Made by a program: the position numbers and the translations under genes | In this document: one piece after another, positions 17,762-33,424 of the stretch | Numbering within the stretch: position 1 is the stretch's first letter | Layout of the letters: each line of letters opens with the position of its first letter | The notes under the pieces: model-generated | What the model saw: only the letters and a program-made list of their open reading frames with translations | The model's database searches: none | What the model was told of the DNA's origin: nothing | NCBI GenBank assembly: GCA_963719635.1 | Contig: CAVRCS010000005.1 | Coordinates: 72,455-136,454, forward strand | Source: an uncultured Thermoplasmata archaeon | Lineage (GTDB): Archaea > Thermoplasmatota > Thermoplasmata > Lutacidiplasmatales > UBA184 | Length of the DNA: 64,000 bases | Direction: 5' to 3'

Positions 17762-20551
17762 GTGGCCGCGACGCACGTCCGCGACGCCGGGTCGATCGCT
17801 CTCGCGGTCGCGGTGACGATCGCCCTCCTGGGCGCCGGTTCGGTGCCCGGACACGCGACGAGCGGCGGACGGCCGGTCCTCGCCGAAGCCGCGACCCCTA
17901 CGTGCGACGGGACACTGCCCCCGCAGGGCGTCGCCGGCACGTTCTCGGTCGAAGGGGGTCCTGTTCCGCCGTCAGCGGCCGGCGGGGTCGTCCTCGAGTT
18001 CTCGTACACCGTCGCCTACCACGTCTTCGACCTCGGAAACTCCTCGCCGACGCCCCTCCTGTGCGCAGCCCTCTCCACGAACGTGACGACCGCCACGGGC
18101 GGCAGCTTCGGATTTGTCCCCGCGATCCCCGCCCCGCAGTGCGTCCGGGTGTCGGGGCTCGTCGTCTGCACCGAGTACGCCACCGTGGCCGCGGGTCCCC
18201 TTACGGTGCGGATCCCGGCCGGGGTTCCACCGGGCTACGACTTGGAGACGTCGGGCAGTCCTCGCTCGCTCTCGGTCGCGCTCGTCTACCCGTGGGAGGC
18301 GGTCTCGGTCGCCCCGGGGGGCCCGGTCGTCACGATGTCCGTCGGGCTGCCGACCGCCCTCGCGGCGACTGTCCTCGCCGGGAACGGCAGCGCCACCGGC
18401 CTTCCGACCGCGTTCCTCTGGTCGGTGAACGGCACCGGCTGGGCGGTCGACGGGCCGCTGAACGCCGCGACGATCCAGGTAGAGGCTCTCGCCGGCGCCG
18501 GGACCGCGAGCGCCCGGGTCGTCGCGAGCACCACGGTGAACGCCAGCACGTTCCTGCCGCTCACGGCGATGGTCCAGCTCGTCGGCGTGGCGACCGAGAT
18601 CGAGACCGCCGCGCTGAACCGGACCGCGGTCGACGCGGGAGAGACGGTGGCAGCCGACCTCTCCGCGACGGGGGCGGCGGGAGTGTCGTACGTCGCCCAG
18701 GTCCAGCCCGGACTCGGCCTGGCGCCCGTTCCGGCGACGTGTTCCTCCGCCCCGCCCGCGGCCGGGACGGTCGCGCTGTCGTGCTCGGCGAACATCGCGT
18801 ATCCCGCCGCCGGCACCGCGCAGCCGACGGCGACGATCTCCAACGGATACTCGACCGCCTCCTGGCGCTTCCCCGACGTGACGGTGACGCCGGCCCCGCA
18901 GCTCGAGCTCGTCGGGGCGGCCCCTGTCGGCTACGTCGGCGTCCCGATCTCGGTCGCGGTGATGACCGCCAACGGCTCCGGCGCCCTCCCGTTCTCCGAG
19001 GCGTGTCTCGCCGGAGGGGCCGGACCGGCCGACTGCTTCGACTCCGGTGGCCCGAGCTGGACGTTCGAGCCGACGTACCCGCTGCCCGGCAACTTCACCG
19101 CTGTCGTGTGGGCCCACGACGCCGGGGGGACGAACGCTTCGCTCGCGTTCACTGTCCGGGTCGTCCCTTCTCTCGCCGTGGGCACGATCGCGCTCGTCAG
19201 CGGGAACGCGACCGTGGGCGCGGCCGCCCAGCTCCGCGCCGAGGTCGACGGCGGCGTCCTGCCGGCGCGGTACTGGTGGAACGCCTCCGCTGCCTCGTCC
19301 CCGGTCGGCCACGGGGAGCTCTCGGCGGACGGGACGCTCGGGGCGACGTTCGTGCCGACCGCCGCCGGGCCGGTAGTGGTGACCCTGACCGTCGTCGACA
19401 CGCTCGGCACCGTCGCGGTCCGGCAGCTCGTCGTCGTCGTCGGGCCGGCATCTGCGGTGCGGGTCGCAGCGGTCACGGTCCCCGGACCGGCCGCCGCGGT
19501 CGCCGGAACGCCCGTGGCGCTCTCGTGGGGGGCGTTCCTCTCCACCGGCTCGCTGGACCGCACCTTCTCGGCGACGGCCGAGCTGAACGTCACGACGCCC
19601 GACGGGCCCCCGACCCTGTGGGTGAACGCCTCCGGCGCCGGCTCGCTCGTGGCAGACGGCCCGGACGAGTTCGAGGTGCCAGCGTCGGCGTGGGTCGGAG
19701 GGGTACTGAACCTGACCGTCGCGGTCGCCACCGCGGCGGAGGTCACGATCGCGCTCTCCGGCGCCGGCCTCCCGTCCGTCGTCGCCCCGGTCGGTTTGGA
19801 GGTCGTCGCCGACCGCGAGCACGTCCGGCTCTTCGACCCGGTGATCGAGCGGGCGGGCGGCCGGACCAACGCGACCCTGTGGCGCGTCGAGGACCCCTAC
19901 GGCAACCCGGCGCCCGGAGCGTTGCTCTCGATCGCCCTCGCGTTCGGCGGCAGTCGCTCGACCTCGGTCGTCGCCGCGCTGGCGCTCGCGCCGAACCGCA
20001 GCGGTGTCTGGGTGAACTACTCGGCACCGACCGCGGCGGCGGGGGTCGTGACCGTCGAGGATGCCGCCGGGGCGGTCGTCCTCGGGCCCCTCCCGGTCCC
20101 CGCCGCGGCGGCGGCGCCGACGCTCCAGCCTGCGGTGACGACGACCGCGACGGTCGTCCCCGTCGGCGCCGCCGGCCTGCTCGCGGTCGTGCTCGCCCGC
20201 CGGCGTCGTCGCCGCCTGGACGGCGAGGCAGCGGACGGGGAGCTGCGCGCGCTCGCGCAGGGCCGTACCCGGACCGTCACCCTGGTCGGCGAGGCGGGCG
20301 CGATCGACCTCGCGGGGCTGGAAGCGGCGTGGCGGCCGCCCCCGGCCCCGCCGGCGCTCGTCGACTGGCTCGCCTCGCTGGTCGCCGACGGTACCCTGCG
20401 CGCGACGCTCGGGAACGACGGGCGGGCCCGGTTCTGCCTGGCGGACGGCCCGGCGTCCCACCCACGGGTGACGGTCGACCCGGCAACGCTGGAAGCGAGC
20501 CTCCGACGGAGGGAGGACGAGCTCGGTCCGCCGGACGGACCGGAGGACTAG
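17762..20551 (+). CDS. large cell-surface glycoprotein (S-layer/adhesin-like) with C-terminal TM anchor and cytoplasmic tail
   Basis: Signal-like N-terminus (IALAVAVTIALLGAGSVPGHA). A/T/V/G/S-rich beta-type repeats. About 17 N-x-S/T sequons. TM VVPVGAAGLLAVVLA followed by RRRRRR and a ~130-aa tail. Confidence 0.7.
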   Translation: MAATHVRDAGSIALAVAVTIALLGAGSVPGHATSGGRPVLAEAATPTCDGTLPPQGVAGTFSVEGGPVPPSAAGGVVLEFSYTVAYHVFDLGNSSPTPLLCAALSTNVTTATGGSFGFVPAIPAPQCVRVSGLVVCTEYATVAAGPLTVRIPAGVPPGYDLETSGSPRSLSVALVYPWEAVSVAPGGPVVTMSVGLPTALAATVLAGNGSATGLPTAFLWSVNGTGWAVDGPLNAATIQVEALAGAGTASARVVASTTVNASTFLPLTAMVQLVGVATEIETAALNRTAVDAGETVAADLSATGAAGVSYVAQVQPGLGLAPVPATCSSAPPAAGTVALSCSANIAYPAAGTAQPTATISNGYSTASWRFPDVTVTPAPQLELVGAAPVGYVGVPISVAVMTANGSGALPFSEACLAGGAGPADCFDSGGPSWTFEPTYPLPGNFTAVVWAHDAGGTNASLAFTVRVVPSLAVGTIALVSGNATVGAAAQLRAEVDGGVLPARYWWNASAASSPVGHGELSADGTLGATFVPTAAGPVVVTLTVVDTLGTVAVRQLVVVVGPASAVRVAAVTVPGPAAAVAGTPVALSWGAFLSTGSLDRTFSATAELNVTTPDGPPTLWVNASGAGSLVADGPDEFEVPASAWVGGVLNLTVAVATAAEVTIALSGAGLPSVVAPVGLEVVADREHVRLFDPVIERAGGRTNATLWRVEDPYGNPAPGALLSIALAFGGSRSTSVVAALALAPNRSGVWVNYSAPTAAAGVVTVEDAAGAVVLGPLPVPAAAAAPTLQPAVTTTATVVPVGAAGLLAVVLARRRRRRLDGEAADGELRALAQGRTRTVTLVGEAGAIDLAGLEAAWRPPPAPPALVDWLASLVADGTLRATLGNDGRARFCLADGPASHPRVTVDPATLEASLRRREDELGPPDGPED

Positions 20552-21921
20552 CGCGCGCCGGGCTCCCGCCCTACGAGGTCGTAGTAGCGGTACGCCGCCT
20601 CGCCTTCCCCGAAGCAGAACCGCAGCGTCGAGAACCCGCGCTTCAGCTCGGCGGCGGCGGCGCGGACCTCCTCGGCCGGCCGGCCCTTGTGGAGCAGGTC
20701 GTCGAACAGCTCGGCGATCCGGCCCATCTCCCGTTCCCCCATCCCGAGCCGGGTCACCTCCGGCGTCCCGAGCCGGAGCCCGCCGGGGTGCTTCGGACTC
20801 TTGTCGCCGGGGAGCAGGTTCTTGTTCGTGATGATCCCGGCGTCGGCGAGCCGGCGCGCCACCCCGGCCCCCCCGCCCTCGCGGACGACGCGGACCGCCG
20901 TCGTGTGCGAGCGGGTGAAGCCGAGCTCGGAGGCGAGGACGTCAAACCCGCGGTCGTGCAGGCCCTGCGCGAGGGCGCGGGCATTCGCCACCGTCCGGCG
21001 GGCGTACTCCCGGCCGAATTCCAGGTGCTCGGCGAGGCTCACCGCGAGGGCGGCCATCGCGTGGAGGTGGTGGTTGCTCGTCACACCGGGGAACGCGGCG
21101 GAGCGCAGCCGCTGGTGGACCGCCTCGTCGGACCCTTCCCCGAGCAGGATCCCGTGCTGCGGGCCGGGGAGCGTCTTGTGGGTCGAGGCGCTGAGAACCG
21201 TGCACCCCTCGTGGAGCGGGTCCTGGAACTCGCCGCCGCCGATTAGGCCGAGGACGTGCGCGCCGTCGTACCAGCCGAGCGCGCCGACCTCCTCCAAGGT
21301 CGCGCGCAGCTCGTCGATCGGGAGCGGGAAGAGGAACAGCGAGAGGCCGAACAGGCAGAGCTTGGGCCGCTGCTCCCGCAGGATCGCCCGCGTCTTCGGC
21401 ACGTCGATCGTCATCCGTGCCTCGTCCCAGGCGTAGTACACCGGCTTCACGCCGCGGAGGCCGAACGCCCCGAACGCGGCGCTCGAGATGTGCGCCCCAT
21501 CCGCGAGCCGGCTTGTGCCAACGTGGTCGCCCGGTTCGGCGAGCGCCTTCAGCACGGCGAGGTTCGCGACCGTCCCCGATATCGGCCGGACGTCGGCGAA
21601 CGAGCAGCGGAAGAGCCGGCGGGCGAGGTCGAGGGTGAGGTTCTCGATCTCGTCGACCTGCTCGTTCCCTTCGTAGTAGCGGTCCCCGGGGAGTCCCTCG
21701 GCGTACCGGGAGTGCAGGTCGGAGATCATCAGCTCCTTGGCATACGGCGACAACAGGTTCTCGCTCGCGATCAGGGGGATCGCCCGCTCGAACCGGGCGG
21801 AGTGCTCGCGGGTCAGCTGGCGGACCCGGCGGACCACCCCGGCCATCTCACCCCGGGCCGGCGGCATGCCCCCCACCCCTGTGTTTCCACTGGAGGAGGG
21901 AGACATGGACGCGGGCGTCAC
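20548..21921 (-). CDS. glyA: serine hydroxymethyltransferase
   Basis: LIASENLLSPYAKELMISDLHSRYAEG, SGTVANLAV, STHKTLPGPQHG (PLP-lysine motif). Start choice among several N-terminal Met is uncertain. Confidence 0.93.
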   Translation of the reverse strand: MTPASMSPSSSGNTGVGGMPPARGEMAGVVRRVRQLTREHSARFERAIPLIASENLLSPYAKELMISDLHSRYAEGLPGDRYYEGNEQVDEIENLTLDLARRLFRCSFADVRPISGTVANLAVLKALAEPGDHVGTSRLADGAHISSAAFGAFGLRGVKPVYYAWDEARMTIDVPKTRAILREQRPKLCLFGLSLFLFPLPIDELRATLEEVGALGWYDGAHVLGLIGGGEFQDPLHEGCTVLSASTHKTLPGPQHGILLGEGSDEAVHQRLRSAAFPGVTSNHHLHAMAALAVSLAEHLEFGREYARRTVANARALAQGLHDRGFDVLASELGFTRSHTTAVRVVREGGGAGVARRLADAGIITNKNLLPGDKSPKHPGGLRLGTPEVTRLGMGEREMGRIAELFDDLLHKGRPAEEVRAAAAELKRGFSTLRFCFGEGEAAYRYYDLVGREPGAR

Positions 21922-21986: not shown

Positions 21987-22487
21987 ATGGAGAGCACGAC
22001 CCCGGTGGCGACGCGATGGCCGATCTCCCGACGGTTCTCCGTCACCTACCACGACATCGATGTCCTCCGGCATCTCAACCACGCCGCCTACCTGCCGATG
22101 ATGGAGACGCTGCGCTGTGCCTACTACCTCGACGTCCTCGGCACCGACGACCCCGCCCAGCTCGACATCATCGTCGCCGAGGCCTCTTGCCGGTACCTCG
22201 CCCCGGTCGCGTACGGGACGGAACTCTTCGGCGAGGTTGCACCCGTCCGTCCTCTCGGCCGGTCGAGCTTCACGCTCGCCTACCGCTTCCGTGACACCAC
22301 CCATGACCGACCCTGCGCGCTCGGCCGGACGGTGATCGTCACCTACGACTACGCCCAGAACGTGAAGAAGGAGATACCGGCCGCGCGCCGACGGCGGTTC
22401 GAGGCGGACGCGGTCGACCCGGTCAGCACGGGTTGGACGCGGGACGGGTCTAGCTCCAGTGGAAACGGGAGGGTGGGAGGGCGCTAG
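21987..22487 (+). CDS. acyl-CoA thioesterase (4HBT/YbgC-like hotdog fold)
   Basis: VTYHDIDVLRHLNHAAYLPMMETLRCAYY and AEASCRYLAPVAYGTEL match the 4HBT family pattern. Confidence 0.75.
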   Translation: MESTTPVATRWPISRRFSVTYHDIDVLRHLNHAAYLPMMETLRCAYYLDVLGTDDPAQLDIIVAEASCRYLAPVAYGTELFGEVAPVRPLGRSSFTLAYRFRDTTHDRPCALGRTVIVTYDYAQNVKKEIPAARRRRFEADAVDPVSTGWTRDGSSSSGNGRVGGR

Positions 22488-22792
22488 TACCGCCGGTCGT
22501 AGGCGGGATGGTGCGCGGGACCGCCCTCGTGGATCGGCGGAGGCCACGGCACCGGCTCGACGAACGTCGGCTCGTCCCGGACCGTCTCGACCCGGTAGAG
22601 TACGCCGCTGCCAGCCAGGGCGGCGTGCACCTTGCCGAGCGTCGACCGGAACTCCTCGACCGTCCTCCACTCGAAGATGAGGTCGTGCGGGCCGATCACG
22701 AACTCCAGGCCGGCCTCCTCGCGCACGCGGGCGGCCAGGTCGAGCGGCGAGGCGTGCGCGGGCGAGAAGTACAGGTCGACGAACGTGTGCAT
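22484..22792 (-). CDS. hypothetical protein
   Basis: 102-aa ORF with normal composition; last high-GC gene before the lower-GC island. Confidence 0.5.
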   Translation of the reverse strand: MHTFVDLYFSPAHASPLDLAARVREEAGLEFVIGPHDLIFEWRTVEEFRSTLGKVHAALAGSGVLYRVETVRDEPTFVEPVPWPPPIHEGGPAHHPAYDRRY

Positions 22793-24121: not shown

Positions 24122-24700
24122 GTGCTGTTACCGGGGCGCGTGACGATTCTCGAAGTCCTCCTCAACGACTACCTCTCTAAGGAGGATGTCCAACAGCTAG
24201 CGCGCGATCGAGGCTTACCCACCGGGAGAACAAAAGCGGACCTGATTGAGCTTCTGATAAGTCGCCATCTCGAACCCGCCGAACCCCTTGCGTTTCTGAA
24301 CGTGACGGCGCTTCGTGACCTCTGCCGCGAGTTCGGTCTCGACCGGAGCGGAGATCGGGATACTCTCATCGCACGCATACGCGGGGCAATCCGGGCAGAA
24401 ACTCCGCTTTGGGGGCTCATTCCGCCGCTACTTCCTTCGTCGCCCGCTAAGGGAGACGACGAACGCGTGAGCGAAGGTCGGCCTCTCCATTTCGAGTCTG
24501 CGGGACCGTGGACGGTCGTCGGCATTGTCGCGACGGCGATCGTTGCGGGGGTGCTTGTTCTCGGCGTTAGCCAGCTCGGGACAACCTGGGGGACCGCGAT
24601 CTCCGTGGTTGTCGCAGTCGCGCTCGCCGTTCTCTTACTCCGAACCTGGCACAGATGGCACCCCCGGGTTGCCGCCTTGATGCGTCGGCCCAATCCGTAG
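24122..24700 (+). CDS. tandem SAP/Rho_N-like domain protein with two C-terminal TM helices
   Basis: LSKEDVQQLARDRGLPTGRTKADLIELLISR and LNVTALRDLCREFGLDRSGDRDTLIARIRGA fit the SAP helix-extended-helix motif. TMs VVGIVATAIVAGVLVLGV and AISVVVAVALAVLLL. Confidence 0.6.
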   Translation: MLLPGRVTILEVLLNDYLSKEDVQQLARDRGLPTGRTKADLIELLISRHLEPAEPLAFLNVTALRDLCREFGLDRSGDRDTLIARIRGAIRAETPLWGLIPPLLPSSPAKGDDERVSEGRPLHFESAGPWTVVGIVATAIVAGVLVLGVSQLGTTWGTAISVVVAVALAVLLLRTWHRWHPRVAALMRRPNP

Positions 24701-24848: not shown

Positions 24849-25364
24849 TCAATCATAGAGGTGAGTGGCCGCAACGAAGGAGCGGATCAGCTCCGGACGC
24901 ACGCGCATCCGGACCACCGCCCTCCGGAGTTCTCGGCTCAACTCCTTCTCGTCGTGTGGAGCGTAGCTCGCCAGCTCGTGGATCTTGAGATGGCGCCAGA
25001 CCCACTCGTCCGGATTTAATTCGGGACTGTAGCCCGGGAATCGATGGACCTCGAGCCGCGGGTGCTCCCTCACGAAGGCCATGGTCTCATCGGACCAGTG
25101 GGGTCGTCCACCGTCCCAGAAGATCATGATCGGCCGCCGTCGGATATGGCGCAGCAGGTGGTGGAGGAACTCCACCACCTGCTCGGTGGCTACCGTGTCC
25201 TTGTGAACCTGAATGTACAGCTTTCCCTTTGGCGTCACGCCGCTGATCGCCGAGAACTTGGGCCACCTACCCTGATGGATCAGCACCGGGGTCTGGCCGA
25301 CGGGCGCCCAGGTCTTCGCGACGTACGGAATGAGGGAGAACCCACTCTCGTCAACGAAGACCAC
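24849..25364 (-). CDS. IS630 transposase, DDE catalytic part (orfB)
   Basis: VFVDESGF, IMIFWDGGRPHWS and GYSPELNPDEWVW are the IS630/Tc1-mariner DD(E/D) motifs. Confidence 0.9.
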   Translation of the reverse strand: MVFVDESGFSLIPYVAKTWAPVGQTPVLIHQGRWPKFSAISGVTPKGKLYIQVHKDTVATEQVVEFLHHLLRHIRRRPIMIFWDGGRPHWSDETMAFVREHPRLEVHRFPGYSPELNPDEWVWRHLKIHELASYAPHDEKELSRELRRAVVRMRVRPELIRSFVAATHLYD

Positions 25365-25864
25365 TACGGCTCGGCGGCGTCGGGCTTTTTTTTATACCGT
25401 GGCCAGGACCGACGCTTCCAACTCTCCACCCTCTGAAGGTTCTTCTCCCTGGCCTGACGGCGAGGGCGCTGCCACGAGAACCCATGGCCCTTGAGGATTA
25501 GCCACGTGGCGCTCTGGGAGTACCGCACCCCCCACTCCCGCTGAAGCGTCTCGACCACCCGAGGAATGGTCCAGAGATCCGTCGAATAGCCATATGACAA
25601 CGCCCCCCGAGAGAGGATCTCGGGGAGGGTGGCCATCGTGGCCGCCGGAACGAAGGGGGGCCTCCCCGAGCGAGGGACCGCTCGGAGGGCCTGAGGCCCT
25701 CCGTCCTCGGCGGCCCTCCGCCACTTGCACACCGCCACCGGACTCACCGCGAGCCGGCGGGCGACCTCCGCCTGGGAGAGCCCCTTCTGGAGAAGCAAGA
25801 GCGCCTGGAGGCGACGTTCCTCGAGAGTAGCCGTGTCACGATGGCGTTGAGCCCACCGTCCCAT
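25364..25864 (-). CDS. IS630 transposase, HTH DNA-binding part (orfA)
   Basis: LLLLQKGLSQAEVARRLAVSPVAVCKWRR (HTH) and LWTIPRVVETLQREWGVRYSQSATWLILK (second HTH). Ends ...RYKKKPDAAEP just after the A8 run. Confidence 0.9.
   Translation of the reverse strand: MGRWAQRHRDTATLEERRLQALLLLQKGLSQAEVARRLAVSPVAVCKWRRAAEDGGPQALRAVPRSGRPPFVPAATMATLPEILSRGALSYGYSTDLWTIPRVVETLQREWGVRYSQSATWLILKGHGFSWQRPRRQAREKNLQRVESWKRRSWPRYKKKPDAAEP
25386..25393 (-). promoter_or_regulatory. A8 slippery sequence for -1 frameshift/transcriptional slippage fusing orfA-orfB
   Basis: Minus-strand UAU AAA AAA AAG. A -1 shift reads ...YKKKKARRRRAVVVFVDESGF, giving a continuous transposase. Confidence 0.7.
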
Positions 25865-26102: not shown

Positions 26103-26432
26103 ATGCAAATAGGGATTCTAATGTCCGATACGAGAAAGGTTTTATGTATCTCCTTGTCCAGTTCGATTAGCGTGGAGAGTAATCCATCAAAGGAAGCCAT
26201 CTTCGAGGTCTTCCTCTCCTCAGAATCCGATCTTTCCGTCGGTGAAATCGTTCAGCTCGCGAAGGTTTCGAACCCAACCGCCTCAAAGTACGTAGCTGTT
26301 CTTGCCGCGGAAGGGAAGATTGTCTTTACGAGAAAAGTCGGCCGCTCCATCTTCTATGCACCCCCTCGCGACGGGAGTAAAACTGGTCAAGGAATCGGAA
26401 CGAAGCGCAGACGAGCCCCGCAGTCGCCATGA
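26103..26432 (+). CDS. small winged-helix (ArsR/MarR-like) DNA-binding protein, first gene of helicase module
   Basis: AIFEVFLSSESDLSVGEIVQLAKVSNPTASKYVAVLAAEGKIVFTRKVGRSIFY is a wHTH pattern. Its stop overlaps the next ATG (ATGA at 26429-26432). Confidence 0.6.
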   Translation: MQIGILMSDTRKVLCISLSSSISVESNPSKEAIFEVFLSSESDLSVGEIVQLAKVSNPTASKYVAVLAAEGKIVFTRKVGRSIFYAPPRDGSKTGQGIGTKRRRAPQSP

Positions 26433-27355
26433 AGGGCAGTGGCAATGCGAACGGGGGAACGCCTCCCAAGGGAGGCGGCCATCATGAGAGATTCTCGGTG
26501 GTGGAGGTCAACGTAGCCCGCCCTCCACACAGATTCCGGGCTTACTCATTTGAACCGAAGCATCTAGCATGTTGTCGCCAAGTCTCGGAAGGCTGCCTCA
26601 GGGCGTGGCAGCTGACTGCCGAGGCCTACGTTCAGCGGATCCCCGAAACCGGGTTCAGAAGTGGCTCGCTCTCAGCATACTTGAACGCTTTCGGCCGCTC
26701 GAAAGTCCCGCCAATGCCCACCCCTGGTAACATCACCAAGTATCCGCCCTTCACGGATCTGTCTGAAGTTCTGGGTATCGAGCTTCTAACCGAGGTAGAA
26801 CCAGACATAGTGATTCCAGTTCCGCGAGTAGCACACAAGGAATCGCCCCCGCTCCAACATCACGGCATTGACGTCATCGGGTTCCGGCAAATCTCGGCTC
26901 AAGACTATGCGCTTTACGTGATAGAAGTGATGGCCTCGGAAGAGGATATCCATCCCCCCTCGACCGTCCGTGATCATAAGAAACAGCTCTACGAAGAGAC
27001 GCTCAACCAGGGCTCACTCGAGCGACTTCGCCAGGATCTTGGCTTTGTCCATGCCGAATGCGAGGAGAAGTTCAAGCCGGTGCTGAACGGCTTTATTGCA
27101 CTCCTAATCCGGGACCGTAGCCAGCTCTCCCAAGGTGCGGTCGCAACCGCCGTATTGGTTCGCCCGTCGGGAATGTTCGATCGCAAGGATTGGAGTCCCT
27201 TCCTTGATTCCGCGGAGGATTTCGAGTCAGCAGTCGTTAATTCTCATATTCTGTTTCTGGCACTTCGATGCGAAACAGACTTCACCGAACTGTTTCGGCT
27301 AGTTCGAGCTAGCCTTGACGGAAGTCCTCCCACTGCAGCCGCAGGGACGCCATGA
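26429..27355 (+). CDS. hypothetical protein with restriction-endonuclease-like core (possible HamA/DUF1837-like effector)
   Basis: 308 aa. Central FTDLSEVLGIELLTE ... HGIDVIGFRQ ... ALYVIEVMASEE resembles an E / hD / ExK PD-(D/E)xK arrangement, but with Met where Lys is expected. Sits directly upstream of a Ski2-like helicase as in Hachiman. Confidence 0.6.
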   Translation: MKGSGNANGGTPPKGGGHHERFSVVEVNVARPPHRFRAYSFEPKHLACCRQVSEGCLRAWQLTAEAYVQRIPETGFRSGSLSAYLNAFGRSKVPPMPTPGNITKYPPFTDLSEVLGIELLTEVEPDIVIPVPRVAHKESPPLQHHGIDVIGFRQISAQDYALYVIEVMASEEDIHPPSTVRDHKKQLYEETLNQGSLERLRQDLGFVHAECEEKFKPVLNGFIALLIRDRSQLSQGAVATAVLVRPSGMFDRKDWSPFLDSAEDFESAVVNSHILFLALRCETDFTELFRLVRASLDGSPPTAAAGTP

Positions 27356-27669
27356 AGATCTCCCTTGATGCGGGGGAGCAGGTACGGTCTCTCAGAGATT
27401 CTACTGAGGAACAGGTCGGGTACGCTAAGGAGGTCACGTTTAGGCGCTACTTTGCGGAGCTCTTCCATACGCAAGAGCCCGATGTTACGAACTTGAGAGC
27501 ACGGAGTCAAGAACTACTGTTTGGTTTGGAGACCGTCGGATTCGATCTGAACAAGCGACTGGCTCTGGGTGAAACCACTCTCGTAGAGGCTCTTCCATGG
27601 CAGCTCCTGTTGTGGCCCGCCTTCCGGGTTCGGCGTGCCCTGCTGAGGAACGGAGCGAGTACCTCTTGA
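27352..27669 (+). CDS. small hypothetical protein (or frameshifted N-terminal part of the helicase)
   Basis: ATG overlaps the upstream TGA (ATGA 27352-27355). The first ~80 aa are protein-like; the W/R-rich tail looks out of frame. The helicase frame is already open from 27647. Confidence 0.4.
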   Translation: MKISLDAGEQVRSLRDSTEEQVGYAKEVTFRRYFAELFHTQEPDVTNLRARSQELLFGLETVGFDLNKRLALGETTLVEALPWQLLLWPAFRVRRALLRNGASTS

Positions 27670-27733
27670 GGACCGTCTCGAAGAGCTCTACCTCGAGGCC
27701 CTCGATGGTATCGTAGCCCATCGACTTCCAGAA

Positions 27734-30568
27734 TTGAAGTTTCAACTGGAATCGCTGCCGCTCGAAAGACCCTTGAATGATCAGAGGTGGGGTCAAACAC
27801 TCCAACTGGAAGCGCGTCGCGCCCTCCTGCTCCTCGTCCGAAGGAGGAGAAAGGGTGGACTAACCGACATCGAGGCGGTGGGAACCCTCCTTAAGGGGCT
27901 GCGCGAGGCACAACTGGATGGAGAAAGCAAGATCGCTCTAATCGAAGACCCTTGGAAGAGGAGGGCGGAAGCGGGAAAGGCCCTCGGCTTCTACTACGTA
28001 GTGCGAGCGATAGAGCTCACGGGCCAATTCCTAAGCGGCGAGACGGTAAAAGCAGAGAATCGCCCCCTCTCCACTCTTGGAACCAAGACAGAGATCGACC
28101 GTCTGATCTCGGCCGCGAGGGAATTGCTCAGGGGGGCGGATACTAAGTCTCTTCTCGAGATGCCCCGACTGAATCAAGCCCTGAATTCCCTGATTGATGC
28201 CAGCGTCTATGCGCCAGCTCTTCCGCGACCAGTTCGAGACTTTGTAGGTAGCCTCGCCTCGCGTCCAGATAATCCAGTGAGTGAGTTCTGGTACGCACAA
28301 AAGAAAGCCATCGATTCCCAGCTCCTTGACCTAACCCGCACTGCGGTTGTCGTAAGCTTGCCAACAAGTGCGGGGAAGACTCTGCTTGCAGAACTGGCGA
28401 TCATACAAGCTCACACCGACGAGCCTGCGAAGAAGATCGTCTACATTGCTCCCACTCGGGCATTGGTTACCCAGATAGCCCTTAGACTCCGGGCCGATCT
28501 CGGGCCGCGCCAGCTCATTATTCAGAGCACAACGTCCGGATTTGAACTAGATCCAGTGGAGAATGCGATCTTGACATCGCCTTACCACGTACTCGTCACC
28601 ACTCCTGAGAAGCTCGACCTCCTCGTTCGAACCGGGCACTCGGCAGTGGCTGAACTGTCGCTCGTGGTAGTCGATGAGGCACATAATATCGGTGACCGAG
28701 AGAGGGGAGCCAGGTTGGAACTCCTCCTCTCGACTCTCCGACGGGAGAAGGCGCGATGCCGCTTTCTTTTGCTCACTCCCTTTGCCAATAATGCTCCCGA
28801 CCTCGCTCGTTGGCTGGGAGGAGCTGAAGGGGTTCCCATCCTCTTGGACTGGAAACCTAACGATCGAGTCGTCGGCACAATCCGAGCAGGCAGGATGCTG
28901 AGACACTCAAGGGAACTCCTCTACACAACCCTTGAGTCTGCCCACAGTGACTGCCCTGGCGGCATCTCGATTCCGATAGGACAAACGTCAGATTTGGGCG
29001 TGATTTCCAAGAAGGCCATTTCATCGGTGGCAGCTCGATCGCTCGCGGCAGCCCTACAGGGGGGAGTGTTGGTTCTCGTATCAAGTCGAGATGACGCAGA
29101 ACAGCGCGCCAAGGAAATCGCGTCCAAGCTCGGTAGGGAAGTCAATGACCCTGACGTAGACTTAGTGTCTCGCTTTATCCTGACTGAGACTGGGGGAGAC
29201 CACCCGCTACCTCCGCTCCTTCGAAAGGGGGTCGCTTTTCACCACGCAGGACTCTCCCCTGAATGTCGATACCTTCTCGAACGCCTCATCGAGAATGATC
29301 GAGTCTCAGTTGTCTGTGCCACGACAACCTTGGCGCAAGGGGTCCACTTTCCTCTGTCCGCCGCGGTCATTGAGTCGCTGACTCGCCGGAGCTTTTCGCG
29401 CGCAGGGTGGATTAGCGAGGAGATTGATCCTCAAGAATTCTGGAATGTGGTTGGTCGAGTGGGCAGGGCACTCGAGTACAGTTTGGGTTCCGTCCTGTTT
29501 GTTGCTCGTAATGAAGAGGATTCGGAGAAGGCTCAGAAGTTTCTCCGAAGGGATGCGACGACCGTCGCAAGTTCTGTTGCTCAAATGATGGAGGCCATCT
29601 CTTCTCGCCCACCCTCGTTCAGCATCGGAATGCTCGAACGACACCGCCCTATGTCGGCCTTTTTGCAATACATCCTTCACGCTATTGCCGTTGGAAATGA
29701 AGGTGATATCAAGCCCGATTCGCTTGAGAGCTTGATTCGAAACAGCTTCGCGTTTCTTCAGGCAGAGCAAAGCGGGCAGGACGCAACCGACCGTTTGCTT
29801 GCTTGGGCCAGAGCCTATGTGGATGTCATTAAGCATCAGAAGGGGGACTCGCTGCAGGGCTACGCTGAGGTGGCGGATGGGACAGGCTTCTCGAGCCCTT
29901 CAGTAGATCAATTACTTCAGGAATGGACCCATGAGGCAAGAGTTGAGGATTGGACGGCGGAAAAGTTCTATCCGACCGTTGGAACTGAGAGCTCTACGCT
30001 GACTCGGGCAATAGATAGCCTGGGTCGGATTCCCGAGATTCATCTTGGATCCTACGAGGAGGGGAAGTTCGATCCTGCGCGTATCGCGAGAATCACGACG
30101 GGTTGGGTGAACGGTGTGTCCATTTGGGAATTGGCAAGACAAGAGTACAAAGGCGACGTGCTGGATTGCTACCGGCATATCTATTCCGCAGTAACAAGTC
30201 TCCTCCCATGGGGTCTTAGAGCGATCGAGCGGGTGGGTTTCTCCGGCAATCCAAAGGCGGACTGGGATAAACTTTCGATGCTACAGGCCATGGCACTTCA
30301 TGGAGTCCGCTCGCCGCACGCCGTCGGGCTTCGCCTGATTGGAGTGCCGCGATTCGTGGCCGAAAGACTCGGGGAGGCCGCGGCCACCTCGGGAATTGAG
30401 ACCTCCGATCTACGATCCTGGCTCGAGAGTTCGGATTCAAGTATCTGGGAACGCGCCCTCCCGAGCGACGCAAGAATCACGGCGGCCGAGTGCCGCCAGC
30501 TTTGGAAGCTGATGGACGGTACCATTGGGTGGGATGACTTGTTCGGCCGCCCGCGAGGCCAAATTTAG
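27734..30568 (+). CDS. Ski2/Hel308-like DEAH-box SF2 helicase (HamB-like)
   Basis: Motif I VSLPTSAGKTLLAE, motif II VVVDEAHNIG, VVCATTTLAQGVHFP, with ~210-aa N-terminal and ~330-aa C-terminal extensions. The listed start is a TTG with no clear RBS. Confidence 0.85.
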   Translation: MKFQLESLPLERPLNDQRWGQTLQLEARRALLLLVRRRRKGGLTDIEAVGTLLKGLREAQLDGESKIALIEDPWKRRAEAGKALGFYYVVRAIELTGQFLSGETVKAENRPLSTLGTKTEIDRLISAARELLRGADTKSLLEMPRLNQALNSLIDASVYAPALPRPVRDFVGSLASRPDNPVSEFWYAQKKAIDSQLLDLTRTAVVVSLPTSAGKTLLAELAIIQAHTDEPAKKIVYIAPTRALVTQIALRLRADLGPRQLIIQSTTSGFELDPVENAILTSPYHVLVTTPEKLDLLVRTGHSAVAELSLVVVDEAHNIGDRERGARLELLLSTLRREKARCRFLLLTPFANNAPDLARWLGGAEGVPILLDWKPNDRVVGTIRAGRMLRHSRELLYTTLESAHSDCPGGISIPIGQTSDLGVISKKAISSVAARSLAAALQGGVLVLVSSRDDAEQRAKEIASKLGREVNDPDVDLVSRFILTETGGDHPLPPLLRKGVAFHHAGLSPECRYLLERLIENDRVSVVCATTTLAQGVHFPLSAAVIESLTRRSFSRAGWISEEIDPQEFWNVVGRVGRALEYSLGSVLFVARNEEDSEKAQKFLRRDATTVASSVAQMMEAISSRPPSFSIGMLERHRPMSAFLQYILHAIAVGNEGDIKPDSLESLIRNSFAFLQAEQSGQDATDRLLAWARAYVDVIKHQKGDSLQGYAEVADGTGFSSPSVDQLLQEWTHEARVEDWTAEKFYPTVGTESSTLTRAIDSLGRIPEIHLGSYEEGKFDPARIARITTGWVNGVSIWELARQEYKGDVLDCYRHIYSAVTSLLPWGLRAIERVGFSGNPKADWDKLSMLQAMALHGVRSPHAVGLRLIGVPRFVAERLGEAAATSGIETSDLRSWLESSDSSIWERALPSDARITAAECRQLWKLMDGTIGWDDLFGRPRGQI

Positions 30569-30652: not shown

Positions 30653-31387
30653 CTACTCTGCGGCATGGGGTGGAAGTCCCTTGTATCGCGCCGAGTACGC
30701 CGAGAACACCTGCTCGTGGAACCGCTCGATCCTCAGCGGGGAGTCGGGGGCCGGAATCTGAGGGCTGATCTGACCGTTGGCCGGATCCCAGATCACGAGC
30801 GAGATGGCTTCGGCCATGTATGCGAAGTTGTGAACGTTGACGCGACGGCCGAGTCGCTCTAAGGTCTCGATGGTCGCCTTGAGCTGACCCTCCTCGACGG
30901 TTGGGCTGGGGAACAGGATCATGAATCCTACCACGGCGTGAGGGAACCTCGAATGAACTGTGGTCGCCTCGGTTGAGATGTCGTTGACCATATTCTGCCA
31001 GTTCTTCCCGACACTCTCCTTGTCGTTCAACGACTTGCTGTCGAAGGCAAATCGAAGGCCGTCGGGCCGGTACCCGACGTCAAAGTTTTGGGGACGCACT
31101 CCACCGATCACGCGAACCGGACCTTGCTCGACAACATCCGGCTTCGCTGGGCTTAGGTGACTCGCCTTCGGCCTCACGATCTCCAAGCCCCCAAGCATCT
31201 CTGCGAGCGCGACCGCGACGGCCTTGTCGAAGAACTCGCAGAGGTTCATTGATGAGAACGGAGGCGACCGGCTCAATGAGCCGCCGTTCTCGGTCCACTT
31301 CGCGCCGAACTTGGCAAGCTCCGTCGGGTCAATTCGAACGGGGGGCATGGGGCGAAGCGGTGGCATATCCGTCGTCACCCTTCCCAA
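30653..31387 (-). CDS. type II restriction endonuclease candidate (PD-(D/E)xK)
   Basis: 244 aa, 15 nt downstream of the methyltransferase on the same strand. NFDVGYRPDGLRFAFDSKSLND fits D...(D/E)xK. Confidence 0.6.
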   Translation of the reverse strand: MGRVTTDMPPLRPMPPVRIDPTELAKFGAKWTENGGSLSRSPPFSSMNLCEFFDKAVAVALAEMLGGLEIVRPKASHLSPAKPDVVEQGPVRVIGGVRPQNFDVGYRPDGLRFAFDSKSLNDKESVGKNWQNMVNDISTEATTVHSRFPHAVVGFMILFPSPTVEEGQLKATIETLERLGRRVNVHNFAYMAEAISLVIWDPANGQISPQIPAPDSPLRIERFHEQVFSAYSARYKGLPPHAAE

Positions 31388-31402
31388 AGGGAAGACGCAA
31401 GA

Positions 31403-33043
31403 TCAATGACGAGAGTTTCTTCGGTCCCGGAGCTTGGCCCAGATCCCTCGAAGAGCTCGGGTATCCTCACGAGTGAGGCCCATGCCTTGACGGAGGAGGA
31501 CTTCATCGGTGGCATCGAGCACATCTTCGATTGAGCCGGCGATTATCTGCCTGTTCAAGGTCTTTGCGTCGAGTGAGGACGCCAGGGGAGGCAGAGGCAG
31601 ACTGGCCGCCTCGCGGGGTTCAAGTTCGAGAACGCCTCCGCCATAGCTGCGCCCCATCACCTCGGAGAATGCGAAAGTGAGGGAGTTGAGGAACACGGAG
31701 GCGAAATCCCGCCTGTTGGTGCCGTTGTGGAATCTGACCCGGTGAATGGTGTCCGTGCAGGTCGCCTCCGTGTCATTGACGACTACCTTGGGATAACGGC
31801 CGATTTGCCGGAGCATGAACGCGTCAGGGGTCCACACCGAGGGAACCACGTACCAAGGGTCCCGAATGCTGCACTTGTACCCCTTGTGCCACCCTTGTTT
31901 TTCAGCGTAAGCGATGTAGTCTTGGACCTCCCGGGGCAGCTTGTCGGTCGGGACGTCCGGGATGTCGAGTAGGTGAGATGGCCGGTTCTCCCTACGATTC
32001 GTCTCCCACTCCGTTTCCGAGAAGACGATCCCCCCGAGGTGAGGGGACCGCGAGACGACCGGAATTGTGAACCCATCGAGGGAACGCTCTCTCACTTCCT
32101 CCGCGTCCAGGATGAAGAAGTCGTTGAACCCCGTGACGATTCCAACCTCAACATCAGCGAAATCCTTGACCCGACGTAGCTCGGGATGATCCTTGACTCG
32201 TCGCAGTACCGCAACCTCCTCGGATGTGAGGAAGTATTGGGTCCACTTCTCCGTCGAGTGGTCCATCGGTTTCAAGTCGTCGTTGGAAAACTTCGGTTGT
32301 CGATACGATTGAAGTTGCTCGATCCCGTCGAGTTCCACGACCCGGATTCCGCTTCGTTCCTTCCCGTTCTTCTCGCCCAGAAGAAGGACGACCTCCTGTT
32401 GGACCGGAAAGACGAGATGCCGGAAGGTGACCAGGGTTAGGCGGCTGAATCGGCCGACGAGGAATCGACGCAGCTCGGCGGCATAACCTACTTGCAGAAG
32501 TTCGGCGGGGATGACCATGCCGAGTCGGCCTCCATCCCCCACTAGGAGGCTAGACCCTACGAGGAACGGAACCCATGCGTTAGTCAGCCGCGTTGGGTGA
32601 AGGCCGGCCGACTCCATGATTCCAAAGGCAACGGCTCGTTGGCGCTCTGGAAAATCTTGGTATCGGATGAATGGCGGATTACCGATCACGGAGTCGAAAG
32701 AGCCATGCTGGTTGAGCTGCTCGCGACAGAAATCAAAGAAATCTCCGACAATCACCTCGACGGCTGAGGTGTCGAATCCGGTTGACTGGATTCGGAGAGA
32801 AGCTGATTTCGCCTCCCCCTCATTCAACTCCACACCCACCACGCGCGTGGTGGCGGCCAACCCATGGCCGCCAAGTTCAATCAGAGTCCCTACGGCGCGG
32901 CCGAGAACTACGCCGTCTCCGCAGCTCGGTTCCAATACTCGCGCAGCCTTGTCCTGGATCGCCCATGTGGCGAGGAAATCCGCGATTGGTTCGGGAGTGT
33001 AGTACCCCCCGCGGAGCTTCTGCGGGCTTGTAGCGGGCTTCAC
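31403..33043 (-). CDS. N6-adenine DNA methyltransferase (Eco57I/TaqI-like gamma class) with C-terminal target-recognition domain
   Basis: GGYYTPEPIADFL, motif I VLEPSCGDGVVL, motif IV VIGNPPFIRYQD. Long C-terminal TRD. Confidence 0.85.
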   Translation of the reverse strand: MKPATSPQKLRGGYYTPEPIADFLATWAIQDKAARVLEPSCGDGVVLGRAVGTLIELGGHGLAATTRVVGVELNEGEAKSASLRIQSTGFDTSAVEVIVGDFFDFCREQLNQHGSFDSVIGNPPFIRYQDFPERQRAVAFGIMESAGLHPTRLTNAWVPFLVGSSLLVGDGGRLGMVIPAELLQVGYAAELRRFLVGRFSRLTLVTFRHLVFPVQQEVVLLLGEKNGKERSGIRVVELDGIEQLQSYRQPKFSNDDLKPMDHSTEKWTQYFLTSEEVAVLRRVKDHPELRRVKDFADVEVGIVTGFNDFFILDAEEVRERSLDGFTIPVVSRSPHLGGIVFSETEWETNRRENRPSHLLDIPDVPTDKLPREVQDYIAYAEKQGWHKGYKCSIRDPWYVVPSVWTPDAFMLRQIGRYPKVVVNDTEATCTDTIHRVRFHNGTNRRDFASVFLNSLTFAFSEVMGRSYGGGVLELEPREAASLPLPPLASSLDAKTLNRQIIAGSIEDVLDATDEVLLRQGMGLTREDTRALRGIWAKLRDRRNSRH

Positions 33044-33076
33044 GCTGTCGACCAGTAGGAGTTCAGAGAGTTGGCG

Positions 33077-33094
33077 GTTCGCGCGTGCGCGAAC
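33077..33094. promoter_or_regulatory. 8-bp-arm inverted repeat upstream of methyltransferase gene
   Basis: GTTCGCGC-GT-GCGCGAAC, 34-51 nt upstream of the M gene start. Confidence 0.3.
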
Positions 33095-33121
33095 GATGAA
33101 GGTTGGGCGTTTGGGGTAGGT

Positions 33122-33134
33122 GTCAACTGTTGAC
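33122..33134. promoter_or_regulatory. palindrome GTCAAC-T-GTTGAC between wHTH gene and methyltransferase gene
   Basis: Perfect 6-bp arms. The half-site resembles the GTCAAAC direct repeats upstream of the wHTH gene. Confidence 0.35.
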
Positions 33135-33169
33135 CCCCACCCCTACGTTTCCGTTGGAGGCCGAGCGCA

Positions 33170-33424
33170 TTAGGCGCCCTTTGTTCTCTTTCCGTTCCCG
33201 TTGTCGCCCTTCTTCACTCGGGGTATCCAGGAGTTTCCTACAAGTCGCTCGACAGTGATCTTCTCCTGAACTTCCAGGGCGATGAAAGCCCGGTCGATCT
33301 TGGCCCGGGAGCAGCCTATCTCCTTCGCCAACGTCGCGACGTTCCAGATCTTCTCGGCGTCCTTATTCAGGATCTCGAAGACCCGCTCTTCAACCTGGGT
33401 GTCCCGCACGGATTCTTGCATCAT
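33170..33424 (-). CDS. small wHTH protein (controller-protein-like position upstream of M and R genes)
   Basis: 84 aa. WNVATLAKEIGCSRAKIDRAFIALEVQEKITVERL is an HTH/wHTH pattern. Same strand and immediately upstream of the R-M genes. Confidence 0.55.
   Translation of the reverse strand: MMQESVRDTQVEERVFEILNKDAEKIWNVATLAKEIGCSRAKIDRAFIALEVQEKITVERLVGNSWIPRVKKGDNGNGKRTKGA

Follow-up and report, generated by a model that had tools for sequence, protein, structure and literature searches.

A probable Hachiman-type nuclease–helicase operon with a remodelled HamA site in a genomic island of a Thermoplasmata archaeon

Hachiman is among the most widespread helicase–nuclease defence systems, and the build and control of its nuclease are under active study. 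The window considered here, i.e., the whole stretch of 64,000 nucleotides that was analysed, derives from an uncultured Thermoplasmata archaeon and contains, in an island of lower GC content, a module (positions 26103–30568) that the original prediction had described as four co-directional genes forming either a divergent Hachiman-like or an undescribed defence system. The analysis reported here indicates that the module is probably a horizontally acquired operon of three genes, encoding a winged helix-turn-helix (wHTH) protein, a HamA-like protein and a HamB-like helicase, and that it would represent a Hachiman-type nuclease–helicase defence system of the PDC-M23 branch whose HamA site has been remodelled, a histidine presumably standing in for the lysine. 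Of the two options originally left side by side, the Hachiman-like one is retained, whereas “undescribed” has to be given up, the helicase belonging to a candidate already present in PADLOC (PDC-M23B).

Fold, pairing and active site of the two core proteins

The helicase, which is 1071 amino acids (aa) long when a single extra base of the deposited sequence is disregarded (see below), has intact Walker A (PTSAGKT), motif II (DEAH) and motif VI (GRVGR) sequences and matches PDLC04531, the PADLOC model of PDC-M23B, over nearly its full length (E 6.2e-194, profile positions 76–1059 of 1060); the 944-aa open reading frame (ORF) of the deposited sequence matches it with E 2.6e-192, and the matches to the HamB models of PADLOC are weaker, reaching 7e-71 at best. 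At the sequence level the likeness to HamB of solved structure is limited to the core (residues 294–746), that of the N- and C-terminal regions being visible only by fold comparison. With an AlphaFold2 (AF2) model of the 1071-aa protein (pLDDT 90.5, pTM 0.91), the top three Foldseek matches in the Protein Data Bank (PDB) are all HamB, namely 8vxa_A, 8vx9_B and 8vxy_B (E 1e-28 to 1e-31, TMq 0.71–0.73, ~1150–1200 columns). In the model the ~300 aa at the N-terminus and the ~330 aa at the C-terminus are entirely helical, so that the helicase has no hidden nuclease domain. Thus, the original description of a Ski2/Hel308-like DEAH helicase holds, and as modelled the protein has the full-length architecture of HamB.

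The 308-aa protein gives nothing above threshold in Pfam, NCBIfam or PADLOC, its weak PADLOC matches being to PDC-M23A (model PDLC04529, E 1.4e-4, 19 bits, profile positions 100–173 of 265 only) and to HamA (4.3e-3). Members of its clade match PDC-M23A at 1e-5 to 1e-6 or not at all, and more distant relatives bearing the ExK motif reach 14–23 bits with Pfam HamA, the cut-off of which is 25. A word-indexed search returned 13 homologues; the profile built from them (A1) matches HamA of the PDB with E 3.7e-4, and hhalign of the family with a Pfam-recognised HamA of Streptomyces rimosus gives a probability of 97.6%. No match was obtained by tblastn against plasmid and phage collections. The search with hidden Markov models (HMMs) that had been proposed as a check therefore gave a divided answer: PF08878 was not reached, and weak matches to PDC-M23A and HamA in PADLOC, together with the profile match to HamA of the PDB, were found.

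Since the only significant PDB matches of the AF2 model of the 308-aa protein (pLDDT 80.5, pTM 0.81) are HamA structures, i.e., 8vxy_A (1.5e-7) and 8vx9_A (2.6e-7), both with probability 1.00 and TMt 0.61, and 8zue_A (8.8e-5), the protein is predicted to have the HamA (DUF1837) fold, of the PD-(D/E)xK type, and is presumed to be the effector of the system. The nuclease-like core that had been read from the letters is recovered in the model, in which E113 lies in helix 106–123, GID148 at the start of strand 149–156 and YVIEVM in strand 159–169. Structure prediction followed by Foldseek, the second of the proposed checks, thus leads from the 308-aa protein to HamA and from the helicase to HamB, and the layout originally recognised as that of Hachiman, a nuclease-like gene directly upstream of a Ski2-like helicase, turns out to consist of a HamA fold and a complete HamB architecture.

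The pairing of the two genes was followed in four bacterial metagenome-assembled genomes (MAGs; Desulfobacterales, Planctomycetota, Pseudomonadota and Eubacteriales), in eleven metagenome loci and in three contigs of the closest relatives. The HamA-like gene is directly followed by the helicase gene in all 16 related loci having enough sequence, so that the gene-neighbourhood conservation asked for in the original prediction is indeed found. Pairing with HamA extends to more distant helicase relatives (~36% identity, many of them from Streptomyces); in S. rimosus a 314-aa gene recognised as HamA by Pfam overlaps the helicase gene by 4 nt. Because the helicase matches PDC-M23B nearly over its full length and the wider family is paired with a Pfam-recognised HamA, the module is a divergent branch of Hachiman and not a different system.

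What sets this rare branch apart is the site of the HamA-like protein. Run exhaustively over 1.84 billion representatives, a profile search yielded 126 proteins falling in two tiers, the first consisting of ~24 clusters with E ≤ 1e-28, which constitute the clade of the window protein, and the second of ~100 clusters with E from 1e-19 to 1e-3, which are PDC-M23A-type proteins (one of them, P0374, matches PDC-M23A at 6.5e-56), all just below the Pfam HamA threshold. The canonical GD-x-x-E...D...E-x-K motif is present only in part in the 308-aa protein, in which TD110-x-x-E113, D148 and E166 are kept and the lysine is replaced by Met168, the complete site reading T109-D110-x-x-E113, Q143-H144-x-G146-I-D148, E166-V-M168-A-S170 and H183. 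In the joint alignment of the two tiers E113, G146, D148 and E166 are invariant throughout. Met168 falls in the column of the ExK lysine, which is occupied by lysine in 91/91 sequences of the second tier and, within the clade, by methionine in 24/25, by glycine in 1/25 and by lysine in none of the 25. Furthermore, the clade has invariant residues of its own: T109, Q143 and H144 are present in 25/25 and H183 in 24/25 of its sequences, the corresponding numbers in the second tier being 1, 5, 0 and 0 of 91. The assignment of Met168 to the lysine column agrees with hhalign, by which IEVMAS of the 308-aa family is paired with SEVKAS of the S. rimosus HamA. A register shifted by two, placing M168 opposite E138 and S170 opposite K140, had been obtained with a single HMM and the ECOR31 HamA; it was overruled by the 91 ExK relatives and by the S. 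rimosus alignment. The methionine that had been noticed at the expected position of the lysine thus defines a clade and is a conserved remodelling of the site rather than a sign of decay.

Gene count, upstream regulators and genomic setting

The four ORFs and the two ATGA start–stop overlaps (26429–26432 between the wHTH and hamA-like genes, 27352–27355 between the hamA-like gene and the helicase) lie at the positions originally given. The genes are three instead of four. Homologous helicases are ~1065–1080 aa long, i.e., ~120 aa longer than the 944-aa ORF, and when six of them were aligned to the window by tblastn their residues 1–98/103 fell on 27352–27645, in the frame of the 105-aa ORF, and their residues from ~99 onward on 27659 onward, in the next frame, which is that of the 944-aa ORF. 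The 1071-aa protein P0134, which belongs to the 90%-identity cluster of the helicase, comes from Logan assemblies and is encoded on the contigs L001 (5,065 bp, run ERR10755941) and L002 (4,250 bp, run SRR28042134), in which the ATG of the helicase overlaps the stop of the 308-aa gene and the helicase is uninterrupted. One extra C at 27661/27662 (window GTACCTCTTG, GTA-CTCTTG in L001/L002) is the sole difference between the window and either contig over their 5,065 and 4,250 bp, there being 0 mismatches; likewise, the helicase ORF is uninterrupted in 16/16 related loci with enough sequence. From the frames of the homologues, the identical contigs devoid of the extra C and the intact relatives it follows that the 105-aa ORF is the 5′ end of the helicase gene and not an independent gene: its residues 1 to ~103 are genuine helicase, split off by a 1-nt insertion, and its last few codons are out of frame. 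The small ORF that had been counted as an additional component is therefore a product of the extra C. It has no match in Pfam, NCBIfam or PADLOC, and the sequence of its product is absent from a collection of 15 billion proteins.

As annotated in the public record, the 271,414-bp source contig has the helicase as a product of just 802 aa (P0014), and the wHTH sequences tried matched only a Logan contig, neither NCBI nor ENA sources. Both of these defence genes are thus mis- or under-annotated in the source record.

The wHTH gives weak but concordant matches over residues 27–86 with NCBIfam ArsR/SmtB (3.8e-6), the PADLOC Csa3 wHTH (3.1e-5) and Pfam HTH_IclR (8.7e-4), and is a putative transcriptional regulator of the operon, a small winged-helix DNA-binding protein of ArsR/MarR/IclR-like type. 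Its start could be ATG 26103, ATG 26121 (103 aa) or GTG 26172 (86 aa). The 103-aa form is the one called in the Logan contig and found in the protein collection (P0379), the 86-aa form fits an 82-aa homologue in locus L010, and the true start may be either of these two. The L010 homologue is 57% identical to the wHTH over 60 aa (E 1.9e-21) and abuts a HamA-like gene the product of which is 53% identical to that of the window. A TATA-like element of archaeal type shared by the window and L010 upstream of the wHTH gene was looked for, and none was convincing; scans for sigma-70 promoters and terminators gave matches at background level only and, the host being an archaeon, were uninformative.

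Other regulators occupy the upstream position elsewhere in the clade. In L018 (135–863) and L020 (484–1146) it is taken, on the same strand, by a repressor with a phage-CI-type HTH and a peptidase S24 (LexA-like) domain, of which L004 (32–421) and L015 (14–262) have the S24 part only, the contigs ending there; in L017 (4733–5812) a protein with an XRE HTH and an M78 IrrE/ImmA-like domain is encoded directly upstream. The upstream ORFs of L008 and L009 are small, unrelated and without family match. Members of the clade thus recurrently have a dedicated repressor as an accessory, one type being interchangeable with another, and that several of these repressors are of DNA-damage-responsive types suggests an SOS-type induction of the bacterial Hachiman-like operons belonging to it.

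Further genes of defence character are found around the relatives. In L010, and only there, a Pycsar cyclase (PycC, E 1.6e-89) lies next to one of the closest relatives of the system, and L009 has a fragment of a type IIG restriction–modification (R-M) gene nearby. Common to L010 (853–3257, a range that also takes in the cyclase) and L008 (5176–6769) is a conserved gene pair that may be a two-gene defence module in its own right; it encodes a DEDDh exonuclease of 236 aa and a Cas4-like nuclease of ~311 aa with a cluster of Cys residues at its C-terminus.

The island in which the operon is located (~22.8–36.0 kb) has a GC content of 55–60%, compared with 70–78% in the flanks, in keeping with the lower GC noted at the outset, and the two neighbours that had been named, an IS630 element and an R-M system, are both confirmed (Table 1). 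Just outside the island, a serine hydroxymethyltransferase (20548–21921) shares 80–87% identity with proteins that, wherever a source is named, come from MAGs of Thermoplasmata archaea. Since this gene identifies the host as a member of the Thermoplasmata and the relatives of the system are found in bacteria, the system was acquired horizontally by the archaeon.

Table 1. Coordinates of the operon and of its neighbours in the island (positions in the window)
Feature	Position	Strand	Source or remark
wHTH ORF, 109 aa	26103–26432	+	ORF list
HamA-like ORF, 308 aa	26429–27355	+	ORF list
105-aa ORF	27352–27669	+	ORF list
Helicase ORF as deposited, 944 aa, TTG start	27734–30568	+	ORF list
Full helicase gene, 1071 aa without the extra C	27352–30568	+	
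IS630-family transposase	24849–25864	-	immediately upstream of the operon; split into two ORFs
Type II R-M-like module	30653–33424	-	downstream of the operon
244-aa protein, candidate endonuclease	30653–31387	-	adjoins the methyltransferase
N6-adenine methyltransferase, 546-aa ORF, M.Eco57I-type C-terminal domain	31403–33043	-	
84-aa HTH protein, possible R-M controller	33170–33424	-	
IS6-family transposase, 505 aa	33628–35145	+	profile match at residues 236–454; beyond the R-M module

Two insertion sequence (IS) elements are present in the island, one with a split transposase. The ORFs of the IS630 transposase correspond to profile positions 1–144 (25364–25864; NCBIfam transpos_IS630, 2e-27) and 147–295 (24849–25364; 2.9e-30) and abut, so that a frameshifted pseudogene, a programmed frameshift and a further assembly indel are all possible. 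The IS6-family transposase is, with its 505 aa, unusually long for this family, having an N-terminal extension of ~230 aa with a zinc ribbon of the IS1/IS1595 type at 195–230. The methyltransferase of the R-M module is recognised by Pfam (M_Eco57I_C, 8.1e-43; N6_Mtase, 3.2e-12) and by PADLOC (MTase_II, 4.6e-191), and is only 371 aa long (P0136) in the deposited annotation as compared with the 546-aa ORF; the adjoining 244-aa protein has no family match in any of the profile libraries scanned and is a candidate for a new endonuclease of this module. In a 192-aa protein of the island (24122–24700, + strand), two SAP motifs for DNA binding (Pfam SAP, 1.3e-12) precede predicted transmembrane helices, an unusual pairing in a prokaryote.

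Repeats were also recorded. A G/C-rich motif of ~27–30 nt, CCCCCCACCCCTGTGTTTCCACTGGAG, forms an inverted pair (21867–21896 and 22454–22480) around a 166-aa ORF (21987–22487) and recurs with 83% identity inside the island (33131–33160), in the gap that separates the HTH gene from that of the methyltransferase; a regulatory role, a role as terminator or membership in a small family of repeats may be considered. The island is bracketed by two exact direct copies of a 17-nt sequence, AGTACAGGTCGACGAAC, at 22768–22784 and 37459–37475, 14.7 kb apart. These copies were considered as att sites and rejected: the right one lies 1.5 kb beyond the GC boundary, and the peptide FVDLY is encoded by each of the two within ORFs that are unrelated, so that the repeat is probably due to chance. 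No tRNA gene was found in the island.

Proposed mechanism and competing explanations

HamAB is a nuclease–helicase complex activated by DNA damage (PMC12278908), and by analogy with it we infer that the operon is active in defence. The N-terminal helical domain of the helicase would serve to bind the HamA-like subunit, as in HamAB (PMC12278908, PMC11914072, PMC13064477), and the helicase would survey the DNA until it meets the aberrant or damaged ends made during virus infection, at which point it could, using ATP, license the HamA-like subunit to degrade DNA; this degradation would abort the infection. The wHTH gene is coupled translationally to hamA, and the most likely role of its product is to repress or tune the operon so as to limit self-toxicity; in Streptococcus, Hachiman expression is tuned by the upstream regulator PezA (PMC13064477). 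Within the HamA site of the clade, in which D110, E113, D148 and E166 are kept, a histidine would substitute for the ExK lysine.

Several other explanations have to be weighed against the one just given. That the helicase might be the housekeeping Hel308/Hjm repair enzyme of the host, surrounded by unrelated neighbours, deserves practically no credit: Hel308 and Hjm do match significantly, both in sequence and in fold, and the host is archaeal, but the NCBIfam Hel308 equivalog reaches 149.6 bits, the cut-off being 1200, the Hel308/Hjm fold matches cover ~750–800 of 1071 positions with TMq ~0.48 whereas HamB covers the full length with the higher values given above, the gene is located in the low-GC island, and the closest relatives of the helicase are found in bacterial MAGs, always accompanied by a HamA-like partner. 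The vertically inherited Hel308 that had been held out as an alternative is thereby excluded. Almost as improbable is a genuine four-gene system in which the 105-aa ORF would specify a separate small subunit, possibly joined to the rest by programmed frameshifting. This ORF is open, begins in an ATGA overlap and ends 65 nt before TTG 27734, the first in-frame start of the 944-aa ORF; on the other hand, it is homologous to residues 1–98 of full-length helicases, the helicase is a single intact ORF both in the identical DNA of L001/L002 and in the 16 relatives, its product is recorded in no source and direct reading of the sequence at GAGTACCTCTTGA reveals no slippery motif, so that programmed frameshifting is not credible. 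A less remote but still unlikely explanation is that the frameshift is real and the truncated helicase part of a decaying, non-functional cargo of an island rich in IS elements. The extra C is, after all, present in the deposited assembly, whose annotation calls nothing longer than the 802-aa P0014, and one of the two IS transposases in the island is split; however, two independent short-read assemblies with 0 mismatches over 4–5 kb do not have the insertion, and the module has no other lesion, the hamA-like and wHTH ORFs being intact. The extra C is thus probably an assembly or consensus error, or else a very recent inactivating mutation.

The main rival to an active nuclease is that the HamA-like subunit of the clade is catalytically dead and serves as a scaffold or regulatory partner, the output of the system coming from the helicase (e.g., by stripping or stalling on viral DNA) or from an unlinked effector. 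This is improbable, though slightly less so than decay of the module. The GD..E, D and ExK residues of HamA are essential (PMC13064477, PMC11914072), Met replaces a lysine found to be essential in every HamA tested (PMC13064477, PMC11914072, PMC12278908), and inactive DUF1837 domains are a documented category (PMC11914072). The documented inactive domains, however, have also lost the acidic residues and carry a fused effector, Cap4 or a peptidase (PMC11914072), whereas the clade is invariant at all four acidic positions (D110, E113, D148 and E166), three polar or histidine positions have newly become fixed across ~25 clusters from bacteria and archaea, no domain has been added to either the HamA-like protein or the helicase, whose N- and C-terminal regions are all-helical, and no third gene is conserved in the loci. 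The combination of conserved acidic residues, newly fixed residues and absence of an added domain points to selection acting on a working site. An active nuclease is therefore favoured, and from the invariance of the acidic residues and the fixation of the new His and Gln residues we infer that a histidine takes over the role of the lysine and that the protein is still an enzyme and not a dead scaffold.

Some observations nonetheless weigh against a functional Hachiman-type system and must be set beside those in its favour. No HamA tested could do without the ExK lysine, and the K149A substitution alone ended defence in S. thermophilus (PMC13064477), so that an ExM protein may be inactive as a nuclease. 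PF08878 finds neither the 308-aa protein nor three members of its clade at E ≤ 0.1, the only record of it on the 308-aa protein being a precomputed “weak” match. The pair PDC-M23A and PDC-M23B is one of 145 untested “guilt-by-embedding” phage defence candidates of PADLOC (bioRxiv 10.1101/2024.01.29.577857), and if the extra C were real the helicase copy of the window would be a pseudogene. Finally, the additional wHTH, although real and conserved in the nearest relative carrying one (L010), is absent from most members of the clade and hence not a core component.

A more far-reaching proposal, which is put forward only tentatively and which we consider rather doubtful, is that the ExM clade (~25 clusters from bacteria and at least one archaeon) represents a mechanistically distinct HamA. 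The change of Lys to Met, together with invariant Q143-H144 and H183, might have produced a nuclease that is assisted by His and differs in its chemistry or in its choice of substrate (e.g., nicking, ssDNA-specific or structure-specific), and expression might be placed under the DNA-damage or stress repressors of the host (LexA/CI-S24 or XRE-ImmA types in bacteria, a wHTH in archaea), resulting in a Hachiman that is damage-induced instead of constitutively surveilling.

The operon has a bearing on several questions. A candidate of PADLOC, PDC-M23, is seen to be structurally a Hachiman; a sub-branch in which the HamA site has been rebuilt minus its lysine amounts to a natural experiment that bears on PD-(D/E)xK catalysis and the meaning of “inactive DUF1837”; the repeated recruitment of repressors, several of them of DNA-damage-responsive types, fits the role of genome-integrity sensor proposed for Hachiman; and the transfer of a Hachiman-type system across domains into a Thermoplasmata archaeon is documented. 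In addition, an error in gene count is corrected, a single-base indel in a MAG having caused the helicase to be annotated in truncated form and a 105-aa “gene” to appear that does not exist. The architecture itself is known, and it is the conserved ExM/QH/H variant of the site, the recurrent link with a repressor and the archaeal instance that merit follow-up by specialists.

Relation to named systems

The pair encoded in the window resembles the Hachiman of ECOR31 (8VX9/8VXA/8VXY, PMC12278908) in having hamA followed by hamB with overlapping coding sequences in a defence-island setting, in the HamA fold of the first protein, in the build of the second (an N-terminal helical domain, two RecA domains and a C-terminal helical region) and in the preservation of the GD/TD-x-x-E, G-x-D and E(-x-K) strand positions. 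It differs in that identity is only 13–15% for HamA and ~20% for HamB, in the replacement of the ExK lysine by methionine accompanied by the new invariant Q143, H144 and H183, in the HamA of the window being missed by the Pfam model, and in having an upstream wHTH gene and an archaeal host. Canonical Hachiman thus has two marks that are lacking here, a HamA score above the Pfam threshold and the lysine of ExK.

With PDC-M23, which is not named in any paper of the literature searched, the system shares the near full-length match of the helicase to PDLC04531, the two-gene A–B order and an A protein belonging to the HamA superfamily. The 308-aa protein, however, matches PDC-M23A weakly and in part (1.4e-4), and whereas the lysine is kept in all 91 ExK-bearing distant relatives, P0374 included, the clade of the window forms a separate ExM sub-branch. 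The Hachiman types with an inactive DUF1837 domain (I-B/C/D; AbpAB of E. coli K-12, 8ZUE, PMC11914072) likewise combine a HamA fold departing from the canonical motif with a HamB helicase; those, unlike the present system, are without active-site residues and have a fused N-terminal Cap4 nuclease or peptidase, whereas the protein of the window keeps the acidic residues, is changed in the lysine alone and has no effector domain fused to it.

Pez-Ham, the PezAT-regulated type III-B Hachiman of Streptococcus (PMC13064477), offers a parallel in the regulator placed ahead in the operon and in the balance between toxicity and defence, but its regulator is the toxin–antitoxin pair PezAT, whereas that of the window is a single small wHTH and the bacterial members of the clade have repressors of the LexA/CI or XRE-ImmA type. 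Lastly, archaeal Hel308/Hjm has in common with the helicase a Ski2-like SF2 core, with superimposable RecA1, RecA2, winged-helix and ratchet regions, and is distinguished from it by having neither the 300-aa N-terminal helical domain nor the extended C-terminal region, and by a different gene context.

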